Shown piece by piece: positions 4,201 through 61,332 of a stretch of 64,000 nucleotides of DNA; position 1 is the stretch's first letter, and each line of letters starts with the position of its first letter. The notes beneath the pieces were generated by a model. That model ran no database searches. It saw nothing but the letters and a program-made list of their open reading frames with translations, and had not been told where the DNA came from. Location of the stretch: assembly GCA_964563165.1 (NCBI GenBank), contig CAZLWA010000097.1, positions 71,893 to 135,892 of the forward strand. Direction: 5' to 3'. The stretch comes from an uncultured Bacteroidota bacterium. Lineage in GTDB: Bacteria; CLD3; SB21. The position numbers and the translations under genes are program-made.

Positions 4201-5094
4201 TTATTTCCTCGGATGAAATGTCCTGTGAACCTCTTTCAGATATTCACGGTCGATATGGGTGTATATTTGCGTCGTCGAAATATCCGAATGGCCCAGCAAT
4301 TCCTGCACCACGCGCAGGTCCGCGCCGCCTTCCAGCAAATGCGTCGCAAATGAATGACGAAACGTATGCGGTGTCACTTCCTTTTTGATACCGGCCGACT
4401 CGGTATATTTCTTCAAGATTTTCCAAAAACCCATGCGGCTCATTTTCTTTCCGCGGGAATTGAGAAATAATACGTCGTCTGACTTTTGATTGCCAATGAG
4501 ATGCGGACGGACTTTTTCCTGATACAATACGATCCAATTCATTGCGATCTCTCCGACCGGCACGAGCCGTTCCTTGGATCCTTTTCCGAAAACCCGGATG
4601 AACCCGGCGTCGGAATGAAATGCAATTTGCTTGATCGAAAGCAATTCCGAAATGCGCAGCCCGCATGCATAAAGCAATTCCAGCATCGCGCGATCGCGCA
4701 CGCCGAGATGTTCCAGCGTATCCGGCTGCTCCAAAACCCTTTCCACTTCGGCGATCTCCAAAACCGAAGGCAAGGTCTTCGCCAATTTCGGCAGATCCAC
4801 GTTTTCCGCAGGATCTTCTTCGAGAAGCTCTTCGTTCATCAGATACTTATGGAACGAACGGATCGCCGAAAGATTCCTCGAAATACTCTTGGCCGTTAGA
4901 CCCAGACCGCTCAATAGTTGGATCAGCGCGGAAATATCTTTGTGGGTGATCTGTTTGGGATCGGTGTATTTTTTTTCCGTTTTCAGGAATGTGAGATAAC
5001 GGCGGAGATCATTGCGGTAGGAATCAATAGTATTGGGAGACAGATTTTCTTCGATCGAAAGGTAGTCTAAAAAATTTTCAAGGAGATGCTGCAC
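4201..5094 (-). CDS. xerD: tyrosine site-specific recombinase XerD/XerC family
   Basis: It carries the C-terminal catalytic signature [36 protein letters not shown] and an N-terminal core-binding domain. The length, 297 aa, is typical for XerD. Confidence 0.8.
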
Positions 5095-15654: not shown

Positions 15655-15720
15655 TGAACTCCGTTTTTCAGATAATGTACAAAAACCGAACACATAAACA
15701 AGAATTGAAAGACATTGCAT

Positions 15721-15803
15721 CATTTGGTCATTTAGTCATTCGGTCATTTTGTGATTGAAATTCGAAAATGACAAAATGACTTAATGGTCAAATGACTAAA
15801 TAA
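15721..15803. promoter_or_regulatory. ~85-bp imperfect palindrome built from four GTCATTT / AAATGAC half-sites per arm, between the ubiD-like stop and the ymdB-like start
   Basis: ATTTGGTCATTTAGTCATTCGGTCATTTTGTGATT-gaaattcg-AAAATGACAAAATGACTTAATGGTCAAATGACTAAAT. The arms match at about 30 of 38 positions. Confidence 0.5.
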
Positions 15804-20472: not shown

Positions 20473-21894
20473 TTAGTACAATGGTCTGTTTGCTGAAATC
20501 CGCTCTGCGAGATATCCCGTTACAAATCCGGCGACCGCAAAGATGAGTCCGAACACAATATATTCCAAACCGTTTTCCTTAATTGACTTGGAAATTGAAA
20601 CCGTGATCCAATGATGAGAACTATTGAAGTAAAAAAAAACAGTGCCCAAAAAGCCCGAGAGACTCGACCAATAAACCGCACGAACGGGAATGGCGCCGCC
20701 TATCGTGGACAGGACGGGAATGGCCACGGTCGTGCTTAATATTCCCGACGAAAGATAGAAAATATCCCAGAGAGAATCAACATTCAACGCTACAAAAAAC
20801 GTAATGGCCAAAACGCACGCGTTCGAGACTTTAGATTGGAAAAGATTCTTGATCTTCAGTACATCGCGGCCGATATTCAAGCTGACGATATTCGTACAGG
20901 TATCGATCGTGCTCATCGCTGCCGTCAATAAGCCCAAACCTAAAAAACCGACCAACACGGGATTCTGATAAGGAGCAATGATGGCGGAAATAATTTTTTC
21001 CGCGTTGTGGCCGATAAGTTCCGCCGATCCGGCAACCTGCGGCGGAAAAAGATTTAATGCACTCACGGCGATGGCTGCGGGCACGATACCGACAAACAAA
21101 AATGAATTGATTAAGCCGATGCCTGCGGCTTTGCGGGCCTCTTTCGCATCCCTTGCCGCCTGAATACGCAGCCACAAATCTGCTTCGCTGAGCCAGCCCG
21201 GAAAATACGCGCAGGCCGTGATCACGATCAGAACGATCAGTTGTGTATCAGGCACCATCGAATGAGCTTTGGCGGGCTTTAATGATAACCATTCAATGTT
21301 TCCTACCCGATCCACCGCCATCAGCGAAACGGCCAGCAAATACGCCGCGACAAAAACAAATTGAAATTTATCCGTCTTAACCACCGCCGAAAACCCGCCC
21401 CACGTCGAATAAATACCGATGGTAAGCGTGATCAGGAACATGATCGTCTTTTTATCGATCCCAAGCGGCGCCTCCAATAGATTACCCGCCACATAAACCT
21501 CCGCGCCCGCCCAAATAAGAAATACGACGATCTGCGCGACACTGATCACGAGCGAGGCCCGATTTCCAAATCGCTGGCGCACCATTTCCGGCTGACTGAA
21601 TGCCGGCATCTTGTGGTATCGCGTCGATAAGAAATAAATCCCGCTCAAACCGGCCATCCACGGCACGGTCATTAGAAGGAATCCTGAAAAACCATACCAA
21701 TAAAATACCTGAATGGCGTACACGCACGACCAGGAGATAGACATGAATCCTGCCGACAAAGAAAACCCTGCCGACCAGCCGGTTAAAGATTTTCCCGCCG
21801 TCCAGAAATCCTCACCCGTTTTGGCGCCGCGGCTGCTGAATCCGAGGTAAATGAGATAGGACAGAAATAGTATGAAAATGATCCAAGTAATCAT
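20473..21894 (-). CDS. sodium:solute symporter (SSS) family transporter
   Basis: It is 473 aa with about 13 TM helices and an N-terminal GAKTGEDFWTAGKSL region, characteristic of SSS transporters. Confidence 0.75.
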   Translation of the reverse strand: MITWIIFILFLSYLIYLGFSSRGAKTGEDFWTAGKSLTGWSAGFSLSAGFMSISWSCVYAIQVFYWYGFSGFLLMTVPWMAGLSGIYFLSTRYHKMPAFSQPEMVRQRFGNRASLVISVAQIVVFLIWAGAEVYVAGNLLEAPLGIDKKTIMFLITLTIGIYSTWGGFSAVVKTDKFQFVFVAAYLLAVSLMAVDRVGNIEWLSLKPAKAHSMVPDTQLIVLIVITACAYFPGWLSEADLWLRIQAARDAKEARKAAGIGLINSFLFVGIVPAAIAVSALNLFPPQVAGSAELIGHNAEKIISAIIAPYQNPVLVGFLGLGLLTAAMSTIDTCTNIVSLNIGRDVLKIKNLFQSKVSNACVLAITFFVALNVDSLWDIFYLSSGILSTTVAIPVLSTIGGAIPVRAVYWSSLSGFLGTVFFYFNSSHHWITVSISKSIKENGLEYIVFGLIFAVAGFVTGYLAERISANRPLY

Positions 21895-21900
21895 TTTTAG

Positions 21901-21935
21901 TTATCAGTTATCAGTTGTCAGTTGTCAGTTGTCAG
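21901..21935. repeat. tandem heptamer repeat (TTATCAG x2, TTGTCAG x3) abutting the transporter start codon
   Basis: Read directly: ttatcag ttatcag ttgtcag ttgtcag ttgtcag. It lies 7 nt upstream of the ATG (21892-21894, minus strand). Confidence 0.8.
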
Positions 21936-22007
21936 TTATTAACTATCAATTGTACTGACGCGATTTGAATTCTTAGGATGGAAATGCAAGGCAGGACAAG
22001 CTTTAAA

Positions 22008-25179: not shown

Positions 25180-25657
25180 AATTCACCTCTATGTTATTTT
25201 TTGTTTTTCCATATTGAGATGCTCTAAAAGGCTCTTAAGATATTTTGACTTGGTGAGGAAGGGATGGCCATCTGTCTCTATTAATCGCTGTTTTTATGGT
25301 TTTACGATCCAACGCAAAATTGAAAATACAGGCGGGAATGGGAATCCCCCGCGACTTTTGTCCTAAGTTGGATGAGAATCCTTCCCCCTTTAATAAAGGG
25401 GGGTGGCAATTCCGGGGGGATTAAATTCGCGGGTGAAATTACAGGTCACCCCTACGGGGTTCTGAATTTTTTATTTTACATTCAGCTACACACAGTTCGC
25501 CCCTACGGGGCTTACTTGCGGAAAGGGTGAGATTCTCAGCCAGAACTCCAGCGTAATGAATAATGAGCAATGAATAATGAGTAATAGAAAGATCTACCCG
25601 ATCAACGTCCATTAATCATTACTCATTATTAATTATTCATTATGAAGCGGAGAGGGT

Positions 25658-25744
25658 GGGATTCGAACCCACGGTAGATTTGCACCCACACCGGTTTTCG
25701 AGACCGGCTCCTTCAACCACTCGGACACCTCTCCCACAACTTAA
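25658..25744 (-). tRNA. tRNA-Ser (anticodon CGA), class II with a long variable arm
   Basis: The minus strand reads GGAGAGGTGTCCGAGTGGTTGAAGGAGCCGGTCTCGAAAACCGGTGTGGGTGCAAATCTACCGTGGGTTCGAATCCCACCCTCTCCG. The anticodon stem is CCGGT/ACCGG, the loop is CTCGAAA, and the T-arm is GTGGG-TTCGAAT-CCCAC. Confidence 0.85.
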
Positions 25745-27701: not shown

Positions 27702-29813
27702 ATGCCGATCAAAAATGACACGTTGGTTTCTGCCCTTCATGAGGTAGCTCATAATTTATGGTGGACGTGGAATCAAAAAGCCCAGTTCATTTTTAAAGAA
27801 CTCGCCACGCAAACATGGGAAGATTCCAATCACAATGCCGTCGCTGTTTTAAATGCGGTGACGCAATCCGAATTGCAGGCACGCATGCGGGAATCTGTTT
27901 TCGGAAAAAGAGTTCAGGAAATGCTGCAGGGTTTTCATGATTATATGCACCGTGAGAAGACCTGGGGCAGTGTCAATATGACGGAATTCAAAGATCATCC
28001 TATTGCCTACTTCAGCCCTGAATTTGCTTTGCACGAATGCCTGCCGATCTATTCCGGCGGCCTCGGCATTTTAGCCGGCGATCATATTAAATCCGCCAGC
28101 GACCTGGGTATTCCGATGGTCGGCATAGGGCTTTTTTATCGCCAGGGATATTTCCACCAAACGCTGGCCATGGACGGAATGCAGCATGAAGGTTATGACA
28201 ACAATGAACCTTCCAATTTACCGCTCCAACTTCTTTCGGACAAGAGCGGGAAACCGATCGTCACTTTTGTTGAAATCGGACACAGCATCGTCAAAATCTA
28301 TACCTGGAAACTTAACCTCGGCCGTATCACACTGTACTTGCTTGACAGCAATCATCCGGATAATGAGGAACACTATCGTGAACTGACTGCGCGCACTTAC
28401 GGCGGCGATATCACGACCCGGATATGCCAGGAAATTGTGATGGGCATCGGCGGCGTACGTCTGCTCAAAACGATCGGCATTGAACCCGCAGTCTATCATA
28501 TGAATGAAGGCCACAGTGCTTTCCTGGCGCTGGAATTGGCGCGTGAAAAACTGCTCGAGGGTAAATCGCTGGATGAAGCATTTGCCTGGGTCAAAGATCA
28601 TTGCGTATTTTCCACGCATACACCCGTTCCGGCGGGGCACGATCGCTTCTCCAAGGATCTGATGCTGTTCACCCTGTCGAATTACAGCGCCGTCATCGGC
28701 ATCTCCATTGACAAGATCATGGAACTCGGCCGCGTCCATGCGCAGGATGAAAAAGAGACCTTTTGCATGACGGTACTGGCTCTCAAGATGTCCAGAGCCG
28801 CCAACGCGGTCAGCGCGTTGCATAAGGACGTCACTCATAAAATGTGGCAATCGCTTTATCCGGACAAGCCCGTAGACCAGGTTCCGATCACCCACATTAC
28901 CAACGGCGTTCACATTTTAGGGTGGATGAACTATCCCACGCGAAAATTCTGGCAAAAATTTCTCGGCGACGACTGGGAATACCACATCATGCAGGGCGAT
29001 TTTTGGGGTAAAGTTTCCGATCCGAATTTCATACCGGATGAAGAGATCTGGGCCCTGCGTTATAATTTGCGGAGACTGCTCATTGAGTTTACCCGCATGC
29101 GGCTGCGGGAGCAGCAGCGCCGTGCCGGCAGCGACGGCATGCACTTGTTTGACTCGTTTTTATCGCCCGACGTGTTGACGATCGGATTTTCAAGACGGTT
29201 TGCGACCTACAAACGCGCCTCGCTTATTTTTTCGAACCTGGAAAAATCCATGGCGATGTTCAATGATCCCGACCGTCCGATTCAAATTATCTTTGCGGGA
29301 AAAGCGCATCCCAAAGACGATTACGGAAAAACGCTGATCAAACGCATCGTCGAATTAAGCAAACACCCTCAGCTATTCGGAAAAGTTGCCTTTATAGAAA
29401 ATTACGATATTAATGTAGCCCGTTATTTGATCTCCGGCTGCGATGTGTGGCTCAATAATCCGCGGCGCCCGCTCGAAGCCAGCGGAACGAGCGGACAGAA
29501 AATAGGCATTCACGGCGGATTGAATTTGAGCATTCTCGACGGCTGGTGGCGTGAAGGGTACGACGGCACGAACGGCTTTGCCATTGGCAAAGACGAGAAT
29601 CCGGACAACGAAGCCGAACAAGACCGGATCGACGAAGAAAATTTGTACCGCGCTTTGCAAAGTGAAGTGATCCCTGTATTTTATAACCGTGACGAAAACG
29701 ATATTCCCCGCCTCTGGATTCAAAAGATCCGGCGCGCGATGCAGACGCTTATTCCGCAATTCAACACCGACCGTATGGTGGCGGAATACGCGTTGAAAAT
29801 GTATAAGAAATAA
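27702..29813 (+). CDS. glgP: alpha-glucan (glycogen/maltodextrin) phosphorylase, GT35, short ~700 aa type with DUF3417-like N-terminus
   Basis: It has an N-terminal LWWTWN region and a phosphorylase core with a conserved PLP-site region (…FAGKAHPKD…). The ORF is 703 aa. Confidence 0.8.
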   Translation: MPIKNDTLVSALHEVAHNLWWTWNQKAQFIFKELATQTWEDSNHNAVAVLNAVTQSELQARMRESVFGKRVQEMLQGFHDYMHREKTWGSVNMTEFKDHPIAYFSPEFALHECLPIYSGGLGILAGDHIKSASDLGIPMVGIGLFYRQGYFHQTLAMDGMQHEGYDNNEPSNLPLQLLSDKSGKPIVTFVEIGHSIVKIYTWKLNLGRITLYLLDSNHPDNEEHYRELTARTYGGDITTRICQEIVMGIGGVRLLKTIGIEPAVYHMNEGHSAFLALELAREKLLEGKSLDEAFAWVKDHCVFSTHTPVPAGHDRFSKDLMLFTLSNYSAVIGISIDKIMELGRVHAQDEKETFCMTVLALKMSRAANAVSALHKDVTHKMWQSLYPDKPVDQVPITHITNGVHILGWMNYPTRKFWQKFLGDDWEYHIMQGDFWGKVSDPNFIPDEEIWALRYNLRRLLIEFTRMRLREQQRRAGSDGMHLFDSFLSPDVLTIGFSRRFATYKRASLIFSNLEKSMAMFNDPDRPIQIIFAGKAHPKDDYGKTLIKRIVELSKHPQLFGKVAFIENYDINVARYLISGCDVWLNNPRRPLEASGTSGQKIGIHGGLNLSILDGWWREGYDGTNGFAIGKDENPDNEAEQDRIDEENLYRALQSEVIPVFYNRDENDIPRLWIQKIRRAMQTLIPQFNTDRMVAEYALKMYKK

Positions 29814-29880
29814 TTACAAATTACGAATTAAGAATTACGACAAGCAAGTCGTAATTCGTAATTTGGCATTCGTAATTTAG
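29812..29880. repeat. AT-rich inverted-repeat element, family member 1 (AATTACAAATTACGAATTAAGAATTACGAC…GTCGTAATTCGTAATT)
   Basis: It has a perfect 10-bp stem GAATTACGAC/GTCGTAATTC plus additional ATTCGTAATT copies. It lies between the glgP stop and the ogt start, and shares a core of about 25 nt with the elements at 48301 and 61239. Confidence 0.75.
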
Positions 29881-29885
29881 GATTT

Positions 29886-30404
29886 ATGTCGGAACAAATC
29901 ATTTACAAATTAGTGAATACGCCTGTCGGAGAAATGGTTGCCGGTGCAACCGATCGGGGTCTCTGTTTATTGGAATTTCACCGTCCTGCGCGATGGAACG
30001 AAATGAAAAACAAGATTTCCGAAATTTATAAAGCTGAACTTATCGAAGGAACTGACGCGTTCATCGGGCGGGCGGAGAAGGAACTGCATGAATATTTTGA
30101 CAGAAAACGCAAGAAATTCAGCGTTCCTCTGGACGTTCGCGGAACGGATTTCGAAATTAAAGTTTGGAAACAATTGTCGAAAATCCGGTACGGTGAATTG
30201 ACAAGCTATAGCCGCATTGCCAAAGATATTGACAATCCTAAAGCGGTTCGCGCGGTAGGCGGCGCCAACGGCAGCAACCATATTGCGATTATCATTCCAT
30301 GTCATCGCGTGATCGGAGGTAACGGAAGTCTGACAGGCTATGGCGGCGGAATCGACAAGAAAACATTTTTACTCGCCTTGGAACGTGGAAATGGGTTTCT
30401 CTAA
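29886..30404 (+). CDS. ogt: methylated-DNA--protein-cysteine methyltransferase
   Basis: The active site IPCHRVIG is present, with …YGGG…K…LL afterwards. Confidence 0.85.
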   Translation: MSEQIIYKLVNTPVGEMVAGATDRGLCLLEFHRPARWNEMKNKISEIYKAELIEGTDAFIGRAEKELHEYFDRKRKKFSVPLDVRGTDFEIKVWKQLSKIRYGELTSYSRIAKDIDNPKAVRAVGGANGSNHIAIIIPCHRVIGGNGSLTGYGGGIDKKTFLLALERGNGFL

Positions 30405-48289: not shown

Positions 48290-48300
48290 GTAAATTGGCG

Positions 48301-48370
48301 AATTACAAATTACGAATTAGGAATTAAGAATGATCCCTAAAATTCGTAATTCTTAATTCGTAATTCTTAA
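48301..48370. repeat. AT-rich inverted-repeat element, family member 2
   Basis: AATTACAAATTACGAATTAGGAATTAAGAAT…ATTCGTAATTCTTAATTCGTAATTCTTAATT. It lies between the recR stop and the upstream gene start. Confidence 0.75.
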
Positions 48371-48976
48371 TTAGATAGTTACTCTTCCTTCCATCGCCCG
48401 GGTCAGTGTGGTCATATCGGCGAATTCCAGATCGCTTCCGATCGGGATGCCCCGCGCTATTCTGGAGATCTTCATGCCGTGGAGTTTTTCGGCGATATAC
48501 ATGACCGTGGCGTCGCCAGGAACATTGGGATTGATTGCAAAAATGACTTCTTTTACGTCCTTATTTATCCTCTCGATCAACTCCCGGATTTTCAGATCTT
48601 CCGGGCCGACTCCTTCGAGCGGATTCAAAAGTCCGCCAAGCACATGATACACACCGCGAAACTGGTCAATACGCTCGAGCGCAAGCACATCGTTAGCTTC
48701 TTCCACAACGCAAATCGTCTGATGATCACGCTTGGAATTAGTGCAAATAATACAAGGATCGCCCTCCGTAACATTAAAGCATATCGAGCAGCGTCTGATT
48801 CTTTCCATCAAATTAACCAGCGCTTTGGAAAGGGTCAATACGTCTTCTTTTGGCTGCTTCAATAGGTGGAATGCCAATCTCTGAGCGGTTTTACGGCCGA
48901 TGCTCGGAAGCTTCGACAGTTCATTGATCAGCTGTTCTAACGATTCAGATGTATATTGCATAATTTCCAGCCACAC
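48371..48976 (-). CDS. recR: recombination protein RecR
   Basis: It has an N-terminal HhH, the C4 zinc finger CSICFNV…CIIC, and a Toprim domain. The ORF is 201 aa. Confidence 0.9.
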   Translation of the reverse strand: MWLEIMQYTSESLEQLINELSKLPSIGRKTAQRLAFHLLKQPKEDVLTLSKALVNLMERIRRCSICFNVTEGDPCIICTNSKRDHQTICVVEEANDVLALERIDQFRGVYHVLGGLLNPLEGVGPEDLKIRELIERINKDVKEVIFAINPNVPGDATVMYIAEKLHGMKISRIARGIPIGSDLEFADMTTLTRAMEGRVTI

Positions 48977-59491: not shown

Positions 59492-59566
59492 CGGGGTGTA
59501 GCGCAGCCCGGTTAGCGCGCCTGTTTTGGGAGCAGGATGTCAGGAGTTCAAATCCCCTCACCCCGA
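59492..59566 (+). tRNA. tRNA-Pro (anticodon TGG)
   Basis: The sequence is CGGGGTG-TA-GCGC-AGCCCGGTTA-GCGC-G-CCTGT-TTTGGGA-GCAGG-ATGTC-AGGAG-TTCAAAT-CCCCT-CACCCCG-A. The T-stem has one mismatch. Confidence 0.8.
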
Positions 59567-59569
59567 CAC

Positions 59570-59599
59570 AGCCTCGTGAACAATCACGAGGCTTTTTTA
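59570..59599 (+). terminator. rho-independent terminator after tRNA-Pro
   Basis: AGCCTCGTGAACAATCACGAGGCT is followed by TTTTTT. Confidence 0.6.
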
Positions 59600-59625: not shown

Positions 59626-59745
59626 AGCGCGTGGCGCCTCTGGCGCCAATGTCAGGAGTTCTGCGCCGAAGGTGCATCCGCCTTAGGCGGAAAATCCCCT
59701 CACCCCGACTTAGCCTCGTGAGAAATCACGAGGCTTTTTTATTGC
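59626..59745 (+). other. degenerate duplicate of the tRNA-Pro 3' half plus a second copy of the terminator (pseudo-tRNA)
   Basis: …TAGCGCG…ATGTCAGGAGTTC-[31-nt insert]-AAATCCCCTCACCCCGA is followed by AGCCTCGTGAGAAATCACGAGGCTTTTTT. It has no acceptor 5' strand. Confidence 0.65.
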
Positions 59746-61104: not shown

Positions 61105-61238
61105 TCTCCTCTGGTTTTTAAATGATAGGACATTTAATCAAAAGGAGACGGTCACACGCGCCATTCGGGCTTAAGCAGACTGAGGCGGATGCTCATGAGG
61201 GCTATTGTAGAAGATACGTTCATTTTTGCAGCCTAATT

Positions 61239-61328
61239 CAATTACAAATCAATAATTAAGAATTAAAAATTCAAATTACCATTTCCGTTGCAAACTATTT
61301 AATAATTCTCAATTCTCAATTCTTAATT
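61239..61328. repeat. AT-rich inverted-repeat element, family member 3 (larger loop)
   Basis: AATTACAAATCAATAATTAAGAATTA…AATAATTCTCAATTCTCAATTCTTAATT. It lies between the aldehyde dehydrogenase stop and the aminotransferase start. Confidence 0.65.
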
Positions 61329-61332
61329 GTTT

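Follow-up and report, generated by a model that had tools for sequence, protein, structure and literature searches.

The DNA analysed here is a stretch of 64,000 nucleotides from an uncultured Bacteroidota bacterium (contig CAZLWA010000097.1; the whole stretch is called the window below, and 9.6% of it is intergenic). It carries three AT-rich inverted repeats between genes, referred to as copies 1 to 3. Copy 1 (29812-29877, plus strand) lies between the alpha-glucan phosphorylase gene glgP and ogt, copy 2 (48300-48372, minus strand) between recR and a geranylgeranyl-reductase-like gene, and copy 3 (61239-61331, minus strand) between an aldehyde dehydrogenase gene and a class-III aminotransferase gene. 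In all three cases the flanking pair is co-oriented and the stop codon of the upstream gene is 0-2 nt away from where the hairpin starts, in agreement with the initial annotation of this DNA, in which the repeats followed immediately on a stop codon and the genes on either side shared a strand. The glgP stop codon TAA (29811-13) overlaps the first repeat unit of copy 1, and just 8 nt separate the hairpin from the ogt ATG at 29886 on the plus strand. Copy 2 starts inside the recR stop codon (48371-73), which overlaps its outermost unit, and its far end falls 10-20 nt short of the start of the reductase-like gene on the minus strand. Copy 3 ends at 61331, with a single nucleotide between it and the stop codon of the aldehyde dehydrogenase gene (61333-35, minus strand); the aminotransferase start follows about 135 nt further on, also on the minus strand.

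The internal structure of these elements is what decides their classification. All six arms are built of tandem 7-nt units: Tandem Repeats Finder (TRF) reports a period of 7 with 3.6-5.1 copies per arm and 72-94% matches, and every arm thus holds at least three head-to-tail heptamers, as do long simple sequence repeats (LSSR) and short tandemly repeated repetitive (STRR) sequences. The unit, AATTANR, consists of an AATTA core followed by two variable bases (variants ACG, AAG, ACA, AGG, AAA and GAG). The 5' arm of copy 1 (29812-29841) reads AATTACA, AATTACG, AATTAAG, AATTACG and AC, and after a 6-nt loop the 3' arm (29848-29877) reads GT, CGTAATT, CGTAATT, TGGCATT and CGTAATT. In copy 2 the arm at 48301-48331 reads AATTACA, AATTACG, AATTAGG, AATTAAG and AAT, 10 nt lie between the arms, and the arm at 48342-48372 is composed of 2.3 copies of the exact 14-nt double unit AATTCGTAATTCTT. 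Copy 3, with the units AATTAAG, AATTAAA and AATTGAG, is the most degenerate of the three, and its arms (61239-61265 and 61303-61329) are held apart by a 37-nt spacer. The stems were described initially as of a 10-bp class, which understates them: the arms measure 30, 31 and 27 nt in copies 1, 2 and 3, with complementarities of 83%, 87% and 78%. The sense RNA is predicted to fold at -24.1 kcal/mol in copy 1 (z -6.3 against shuffles), -24.8 kcal/mol in copy 2 (z -6.0 against shuffles) and -21.6 kcal/mol in copy 3 (z -3.6), where the antisense strand reaches just -10.1. The strand preference of the fold is inconsistent, being for the sense strand in copy 3, for the antisense strand in copy 2 and for neither in copy 1.

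The repeats are not a product of chance. The core AATTACGAATTAAGAATTA, with at most three mismatches, gives 14 matches in the window, all within the three loci, where 0.03 are expected from shuffles, and the generic string AATTANNAATTANNAATTA, with at most two mismatches, gives 25 matches against 0.47 expected, confined to the three loci and to a related TAATGAR hairpin at 25616-25642. The presence of three non-random, extragenic and hairpin-forming repeats at these places is therefore confirmed. Copies 1 and 2 agree at 25 of 26 nt (AATTACAAATTACGAATTA[A/G]GAATTA), and copy 3 agrees at 23 of 26. The initial annotation regarded a 25-nt near-identity as far beyond chance, and non-random it is; however, because the arms are arrays of one short unit, this near-identity is largely a low-complexity identity, and the exact 19-mer common to copies 1 and 2 is also found in unrelated Ignavibacteriales, Bacteroidia, Saprospiraceae and viral contigs. 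Exact 14-nt double-unit duplications occur at 48341-48372 and, in the Logan contig L127 that continues the genome past the right end of the window, at L127:4071-4102. Such internal duplications are a signature of local slippage, and the tandem heptamer substructure places the elements among the heptanucleotide simple-sequence repeats (SSR) of the STRR or LSSR kind and not among discrete mobile elements. We consider it probable that each of the three elements is a pair of inverted tandem AATTANR arrays of this kind, born by slippage and transcribed as a 3' or intercistronic hairpin. The kind is already known; the AATTANR unit in inverted-pair form, in an uncultured lineage, is the new addition.

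Two details of the neighbouring coding sequence may be mentioned at this point. The last codons of the phosphorylase, AAG AAA TAA (29805-29813), are one base off the repeat-unit string AAGAATTAA, and the end of this gene may itself have seeded or anchored the copy 1 array. Between copy 3 and the aminotransferase start there is a 23-codon open reading frame (ORF) on the minus strand (61105-61238, MNVSSTIALMSIRLSLLKPEWRV), which has no gene call in the Logan contig and may be a leader peptide or a chance occurrence. We also considered whether an array might provide a stop codon for each of the three frames. Past copy 1, the remaining frames run on for 40-70 nt before they terminate, and such provision was rejected as a design feature.

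The repeats had been taken for a family of three members, which turned out to be too narrow. A fourth AATTAAR hairpin (units AATTAAG and AATTAAA, -25.8 kcal/mol) lies about 5 kb beyond the right end of the window (L127:4072-4167) and begins within a stop codon, and the window itself holds two hairpins of other units and a one-armed array. An unbiased scan of the window for long inverted repeats gave five with arms of 21-37 nt, and all five are built of tandem units. One of the two hairpins of other units, at 25552-25644 on the minus strand, is formed by inverted TAATGAA/TAATGAG arrays (the TAATGAR unit) with 37-nt arms (-38.2 kcal/mol, z -7.35) and starts 2 nt past the 3' end of tRNA-Ser(cga) (25647-25734, minus strand). 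The other, at 15720-15795 on the minus strand, has an 8-nt unit (GTCATTTN) and 31-nt arms (-27.3 kcal/mol, z -6.5); it abuts the stop codon of a UbiD-family gene (15796-98, minus strand), whose TAG forms part of the first unit. The one-armed array, which is not a hairpin, consists of six TAACTGA/CAACTGA heptamers (21899-21939, minus strand) and stops 4 nt short of the ATG (21894-21892) of a sodium:solute symporter gene (20473-21894). All six array loci of the window are intergenic, to be compared with the 9.6% share of intergenic DNA (P ~8e-7).

The genome beyond the window is represented by two Logan contigs, L127 past the right end and L129 before the left end, which bring the total to about 78 kb. 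In L129, a single-arm array of 4.6 TAATCAG units followed by 3.9 AATTATC units (1843-1917) lies in the nuo operon, its TAATCAG part starting with the nuoD stop codon, and a single-arm array of 4.6 CTAACTA units, preceded by two AATTAAG-type units, lies between nuoK and nuoL (4485-4538). In L127, a perfect array of 4.3 GCCAGAA units occupies positions 1-30, at the very tip of the contig and about 9 kb past the window end. Altogether, at least eight different 7-8-nt unit types are found at about 10 intergenic sites in this DNA. The genome is thus prone to heptamer arrays; they are intergenic only, and the first unit usually holds the upstream stop codon. Confinement to intergenic DNA, a large number of loci and several unit families within one genome are traits of LSSR and STRR sequences. 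As a separate observation, the ends of Logan contigs adjoin repeats: L127 breaks at the GCCAGAA array and between two duplicated terminators (window position 59680), and L001 ends at about window position 25701, beside the tRNA-Ser hairpin, which suggests that these arrays and other repeats break short-read assemblies. Some hairpin loops hold a short, G+C-richer stem-loop of their own, for example ATGAGC-N12-GCTCAT followed by a T-rich stretch (L127:4100-4140, L049:2862-2890), and a small terminator-like hairpin that was already in place may have served as the nucleus from which heptamer arrays extended outward on either side.

The comparison of orthologous sites indicates how the arrays behave over time. 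At the identical glgP-ogt position, a relative with 97% amino-acid identity of the phosphorylase (JGI sample 3300069203) carries an AATTANG hairpin 70 nt in length, although only 57% of the four-fold degenerate sites are identical to the window. Both genomes have all four AATTA cores of the 5' arm intact, positions 6-7 of the unit differ, and the 3' arm of the relative is eroded and its predicted fold weak (-14.9 kcal/mol, z -2.1). In an 81% relative, which shares the gene order, the site is empty and the glgP-ogt spacer only 4 nt long (TAA-CAAT-ATG). No arrays are present at the three syntenic junctions of this relative (glgP|ogt, UbiD|YmdB and kinase|symporter, the last at L123:6942-6974), which has ordinary terminators with an A-tract, a stem and a U-tract, and none were found in relatives at 79% and 73% identity. 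More distant protein matches of the window come from Acidobacteriota, Ignavibacteria and Bacteroidota. Arrays are therefore gained or lost between relatives, and the ortholog comparisons imply that they are lineage-specific, long-lived at a locus and internally turning over. Sequence variants relative to the 97% genome, loss or gain relative to the 81% genome and the 14-nt duplications correspond to the rapid change between relatives and the slippage signs that characterize LSSR.

One could argue that the same presence or absence between relatives reveals non-autonomous mobile elements of the repetitive extragenic palindromic (REP), REP-doublet hairpin (REPIN) or miniature inverted-repeat transposable element (MITE) type, copied by a transposase in trans. 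A REP element consists of a conserved unit of 20-40 nt that bears a GTAG/CGTC tag and is mobilised by REP-associated tyrosine transposases (RAYT); REP elements as such are no strangers to RNA: they are transcribed and can stabilise upstream mRNA. The elements of the window do resemble the REP sequences, bacterial interspersed mosaic elements (BIME) and REPINs of Enterobacteria and Pseudomonas in that they are dispersed palindromes outside genes that occupy gene 3' ends or the gaps between cistrons, and copies 1 and 2 have an identical 19-nt end in common. In contrast to REPs, they carry no tag and no conserved full-length sequence, and they have an internal tandem-repeat structure. No GTAG/CTAC or CGTC/GACG tag is present at the ends of the three copies, no conserved 20-40-nt palindrome was found, and unit number, variants and loop differ from copy to copy. 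Nor is there a pair of terminal inverted repeats around a conserved interior, as in a MITE: the loops are unrelated and of different length in every copy, including the fourth. No target-site duplication, for which the initial annotation had proposed to look, is seen when the filled copy 1 site is compared with the empty orthologous site of the 81% relative. The 19-mer was also rejected as the mark of a mobile element, since the same string occurs in unrelated phyla and viral contigs, and inside the arms there is a tandem SSR in which 14-nt stretches are locally duplicated. A Pfam scan of 40 ORFs of the window gave no Y1 or DDE transposase, and the sole recombinase is a tyrosine recombinase of the XerC/D type (4201-5094). 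Of the REP- or MITE-like identity suggested initially, the likeness to REP thus holds in position and shape but mobility is not supported, and we regard transposition of such elements as highly improbable. Integron attC sites were rejected as well, as there are no GTTRRRY cores at the ends of copies 1-3 and the flanking genes are syntenic housekeeping genes. At the gathering threshold, Rfam gives nothing at the elements and finds only signal recognition particle (SRP) RNA and two tRNAs in the window.

The unit itself is widespread. The triplet AATTAMGAATTAMGAATTAMG (AATTAMG x3) is present in at least 120 stretches of a collection of species-representative genomes, whereas about 2 would be expected by arithmetic for random sequence of that size. 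Among the matches listed, the carriers are Nostocales and other cyanobacteria, Bacteroidota (Chitinophaga, Saprospiraceae, Bacteroidales) and Ignavibacteria, as well as Acidobacteriota, Chloroflexia, Planctomycetota, Treponema and others. Carriers of AATTACG hairpins that can be cultivated include Chitinophaga varians, C. vietnamensis and C. solisilvae (L015, L106, L097). About one fifth of the listed genome matches has an inverted partner (at least 80%) within 150 nt, and the listed Nostocales matches are mostly single arrays without one. Among IMG/VR viral contigs, at least 120 stretches hold AATTAMG triplets as well, some of them in contigs of 55-65% GC and in giant-virus metagenome-assembled genomes (GVMAG); the sources of these matches (L210-L329) may be true phages, prophages or host contamination. 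One viral contig (L275) has three AATTACG hairpins after ORFs within 10 kb. One unit therefore recurs in many unrelated phyla and viral contigs. The loci that bear AATTAMG also hold hairpins of many other heptamers, which makes this a property of the genome and not of one sequence. Among the periodic hairpins in these loci, 31 of 49 have the stop codon of a long ORF within 30 nt, mostly at -6 to +12 nt, and 8 of the 49 lie between two convergent stops. No period-7 hairpins were found in a negative control of 533 kb of unrelated metagenome contigs, taken from a metagenome scan for glgP orthologues in which the relatives had at most 57% identity among the matches listed. A Chloroflexia metagenome-assembled genome (MAG; L083, DASVQO010000194.1, 253-6843) has eight heptamer hairpins in the gaps of its S10/spc ribosomal-protein operon (L29|S17|L14 and L5|S8|L6|L18), with arms of 26-35 nt, 0-6 mismatches and at least six units in 7 kb (CAGTTAT, ATTTAGG, AATTCTT, GGAATTT, AGTGGTT, TTCGAAA).

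The wide occurrence of AATTA units, also in contigs of 55-65% GC, together with the four intact 5'-arm cores in the window and the 97% relative, where four-fold sites have diverged and positions 6-7 differ, would be in line with arrays of binding sites for a sequence-specific DNA- or RNA-binding protein that reads AATTA at 7-nt spacing, such as a nucleoid-associated protein or a post-transcriptional regulator. Binding of S1, Csp or CsrA has been proposed for TAACTGA arrays (MacGregor, 2015; PMC4679880). However, array-prone genomes hold many unrelated units: AATTANR, TAATGAR, TAACTGA, TAATCAG, CTAACTA, GCCAGAA and an 8-mer coexist in the genome studied here, and the Chloroflexia locus L083 has its own set of at least six. 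Since there are many unrelated units per genome, a general mutational propensity fits better than one binding specificity. Additionally, no candidate binding protein was identified, and the 81% relative does without arrays at the same junctions. We find it unlikely that the elements are protein-binding arrays.

The elements share with intrinsic terminators the position of stable hairpins directly downstream of genes and tRNAs, and the initial annotation had considered a shared terminator motif, pointing at the same time to the lack of a canonical U-tract. The elements could be terminators without a U-tract, intrinsic or bidirectional, or strong attenuators, if the 3' arm, whose RNA:DNA hybrid is A/U-rich and weak, took the place of the U-tract. 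The predicted folds are very stable, the hairpin-type arrays of this genome separate genes without a functional relationship or follow a tRNA, and the hairpin 2 nt past tRNA-Ser has its counterpart in a canonical terminator at the same offset after tRNA-Pro (59570, the tRNA ending at 59567). In other genomes (L015, L059, L107), several such hairpins take up all the DNA from one convergent stop codon to the other. Against this, there is no U-tract after the 3' arms of copies 1-3, and a terminator scan of the window gives no call at the elements, yet it calls terminators with U-tracts elsewhere; the absence of the U-tract is thus borne out. Unlike intrinsic terminators, with their G+C-rich stem, short loop and U run, the elements have arms of 21-37 nt with regular mismatches and no G+C-rich stem, and equivalent hairpins are present inside a ribosomal operon. 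Textbook hairpins with a U-tract exist in the same genome (19150-19177, 59570-59593 and 59712-59735), which the polymerase of this organism evidently uses. The close spacing of copy 1 and ogt, and the 4 nt between the same genes in the 81% relative, look operon-like. The decisive point is the eight equivalent hairpins between cistrons of the S10/spc operon of the Chloroflexia MAG, which, with the missing U-tract, make efficient termination by the elements unlikely. A terminator motif, or a strong attenuator, accordingly remains a doubtful explanation in our estimate.

The canonical terminators offer an observation of their own. Two of them, at 59570-59593 and 59712-59735 on the plus strand, are nearly identical (AGCCTCGTGA(ac/ga)AATCACGAGGC and then TTTTTTATTG) and stand 142 nt apart; the first starts 2 nt past tRNA-Pro (59492-59567). 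The pair may be a duplicated terminator or the remnant of a second tRNA unit.

If the elements are inverted heptamer arrays produced by slippage, as we prefer to think, a mechanism can be outlined from the sequence comparisons. Replication slippage in steps of 7 or 14 nt would both create the arrays and alter them where they stand, the complementarity of the arms may be kept by intrastrand (quasi-palindrome) template switching, and spread would not proceed via transposition of a discrete element. Co-transcription with the upstream gene would yield a predicted long AU-rich hairpin starting at the stop codon. Its likeliest effect would be that of an intercistronic or 3' untranslated region (3'-UTR) stem-loop, with at most a modest influence on mRNA 3' ends or stability; it could be a barrier to 3'-to-5' exonucleases or cause weak attenuation, as in the case of E. 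coli REP. Alternatively, it might have little effect, a self-paired insert being presumably well tolerated. Efficient intrinsic termination would not be expected of it.

Several facts weigh against this account. Stem mismatches, counted on the sense strand, are G.U in 19 and A.C in 14 cases (p = 0.49); there is no G.U excess, and selection at the RNA level is therefore not demonstrated. The weak fold of the hairpin of the 97% relative, described above, means that hairpin strength is not strictly maintained. Pure slippage does not explain arrays that begin exactly at stop codons. The AATTA cores are intact despite near-saturated synonymous divergence while positions 6-7 differ, which, judged from the aligned sequences, looks like constraint on the core. 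Finally, slippage leaves the recurrence of one particular heptamer across phyla unaccounted for. It is conceivable, although we would call it improbable, that the AATTA-core hairpins are a selected cis-element common to phyla and phages and anchored at stop codons, which acts through translational coupling or through a protein that reads the array. One possibility is that a self-pairing insert rejoins the stop codon and the next start codon at the base of the stem and so keeps the coupling despite an insertion of 70-90 nt; glgP|ogt, the junction of recR and the geranylgeranyl-reductase-like gene, and the Chloroflexia ribosomal operon might be such sites. The other possibility is that a putative protein recognises AATTA at 7-nt spacing. 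If true, these selected-element explanations would account for the anchoring at stop codons and for the conservation of the core across saturated synonymous divergence, and the protein version might bear on the question why the unit length is seven.

Repeats of the slippage-derived kind that we favour are familiar from other bacteria. In many free-living bacteria, no class of long simple repeats is more abundant than the heptanucleotides. The cyanobacterial STRR sequences were reportedly described by Mazel and colleagues in 1990, and in the strict sense their units are CCCCAGT, TTGGTCA and CAACAGT in heterocystous cyanobacteria. The units found here, AATTANR, TAATGAR and TAACTGA, are not among these. 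The arrays nevertheless share with STRR and LSSR sequences several tandem heptanucleotide families, an intergenic location, hypervariability between relatives and an ascription to slippage, and AATTAMG arrays themselves are common in Nostocales among the matches listed. The difference is that in those matches the Nostocales arrays are mostly single, whereas in the genome studied here the inverted-pair form dominates. Heptanucleotides have been summarized as the commonest long SSR in SSR-rich bacteria, with polymerase slippage as the proposed origin (Mrazek et al., 2007, as relayed in PMC4679880).

The closest architecture is that of the G-rich tandem heptamers (GGGAATC)n of Xanthomonas and (GGGGAYT)n of Nostoc, which typically have about 4 units per array (Rehm et al., 2015; PMC4692102). 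In Xanthomonas, there are 70-75 convergent inverted GGGAATC pairs with the capacity for stem-loop formation, located between co-oriented ORFs, at most 50 bp from a stop codon or overlapping it, and under-represented between divergent ORFs (PMC4692102). These repeats are transcribed, and the locus is usually kept in sister species, with varying length and sequence (PMC4692102). The inverted heptamer arrays near stop codons in the window have the same architecture with a different unit: the arrays are convergent and close, the ORFs co-oriented, and the distance to the upstream gene end is 0-2 nt in all five hairpins of the window. In contrast to the Xanthomonas and Nostoc units, which are G-rich and form quadruplexes, AATTANR is AT-rich with a self-complementary AATT core, so that no quadruplex is possible, and the host is a MAG that is neither Xanthomonas nor cyanobacterial. 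The TAACTGA direct repeats of Beggiatoaceae, cyanobacteria and a few Bacteroidetes, located just upstream of start codons, are a second relevant system (MacGregor, 2015; PMC4679880). Their spread across phyla is patchy, includes ribosomal-protein operons and leaves neighbouring relatives without them (PMC4679880). Both systems are intergenic heptamer arrays scattered across phyla, and the array at 21899-21939 has the exact TAACTGA motif and placement. The TAACTGA arrays are direct repeats before starts, whereas the AATTANR arrays are inverted pairs anchored at stops. No relevant paper was found in the searchable literature for AATTACG-type repeat strings.

To our knowledge, there is after 35 years no accepted explanation for the unit length of seven, the proximity to stop codons and the patchy recurrence of units across phyla. 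For genome annotation, our results mean that such hairpins should not be labelled terminators, MITEs or REPs by default. For the heptanucleotide repeats as a family, the window adds an AT-rich unit, AATTANR, in inverted-pair form and in an uncultured lineage, and our scans suggest that its range extends from cyanobacteria to Chloroflexia and viral contigs.

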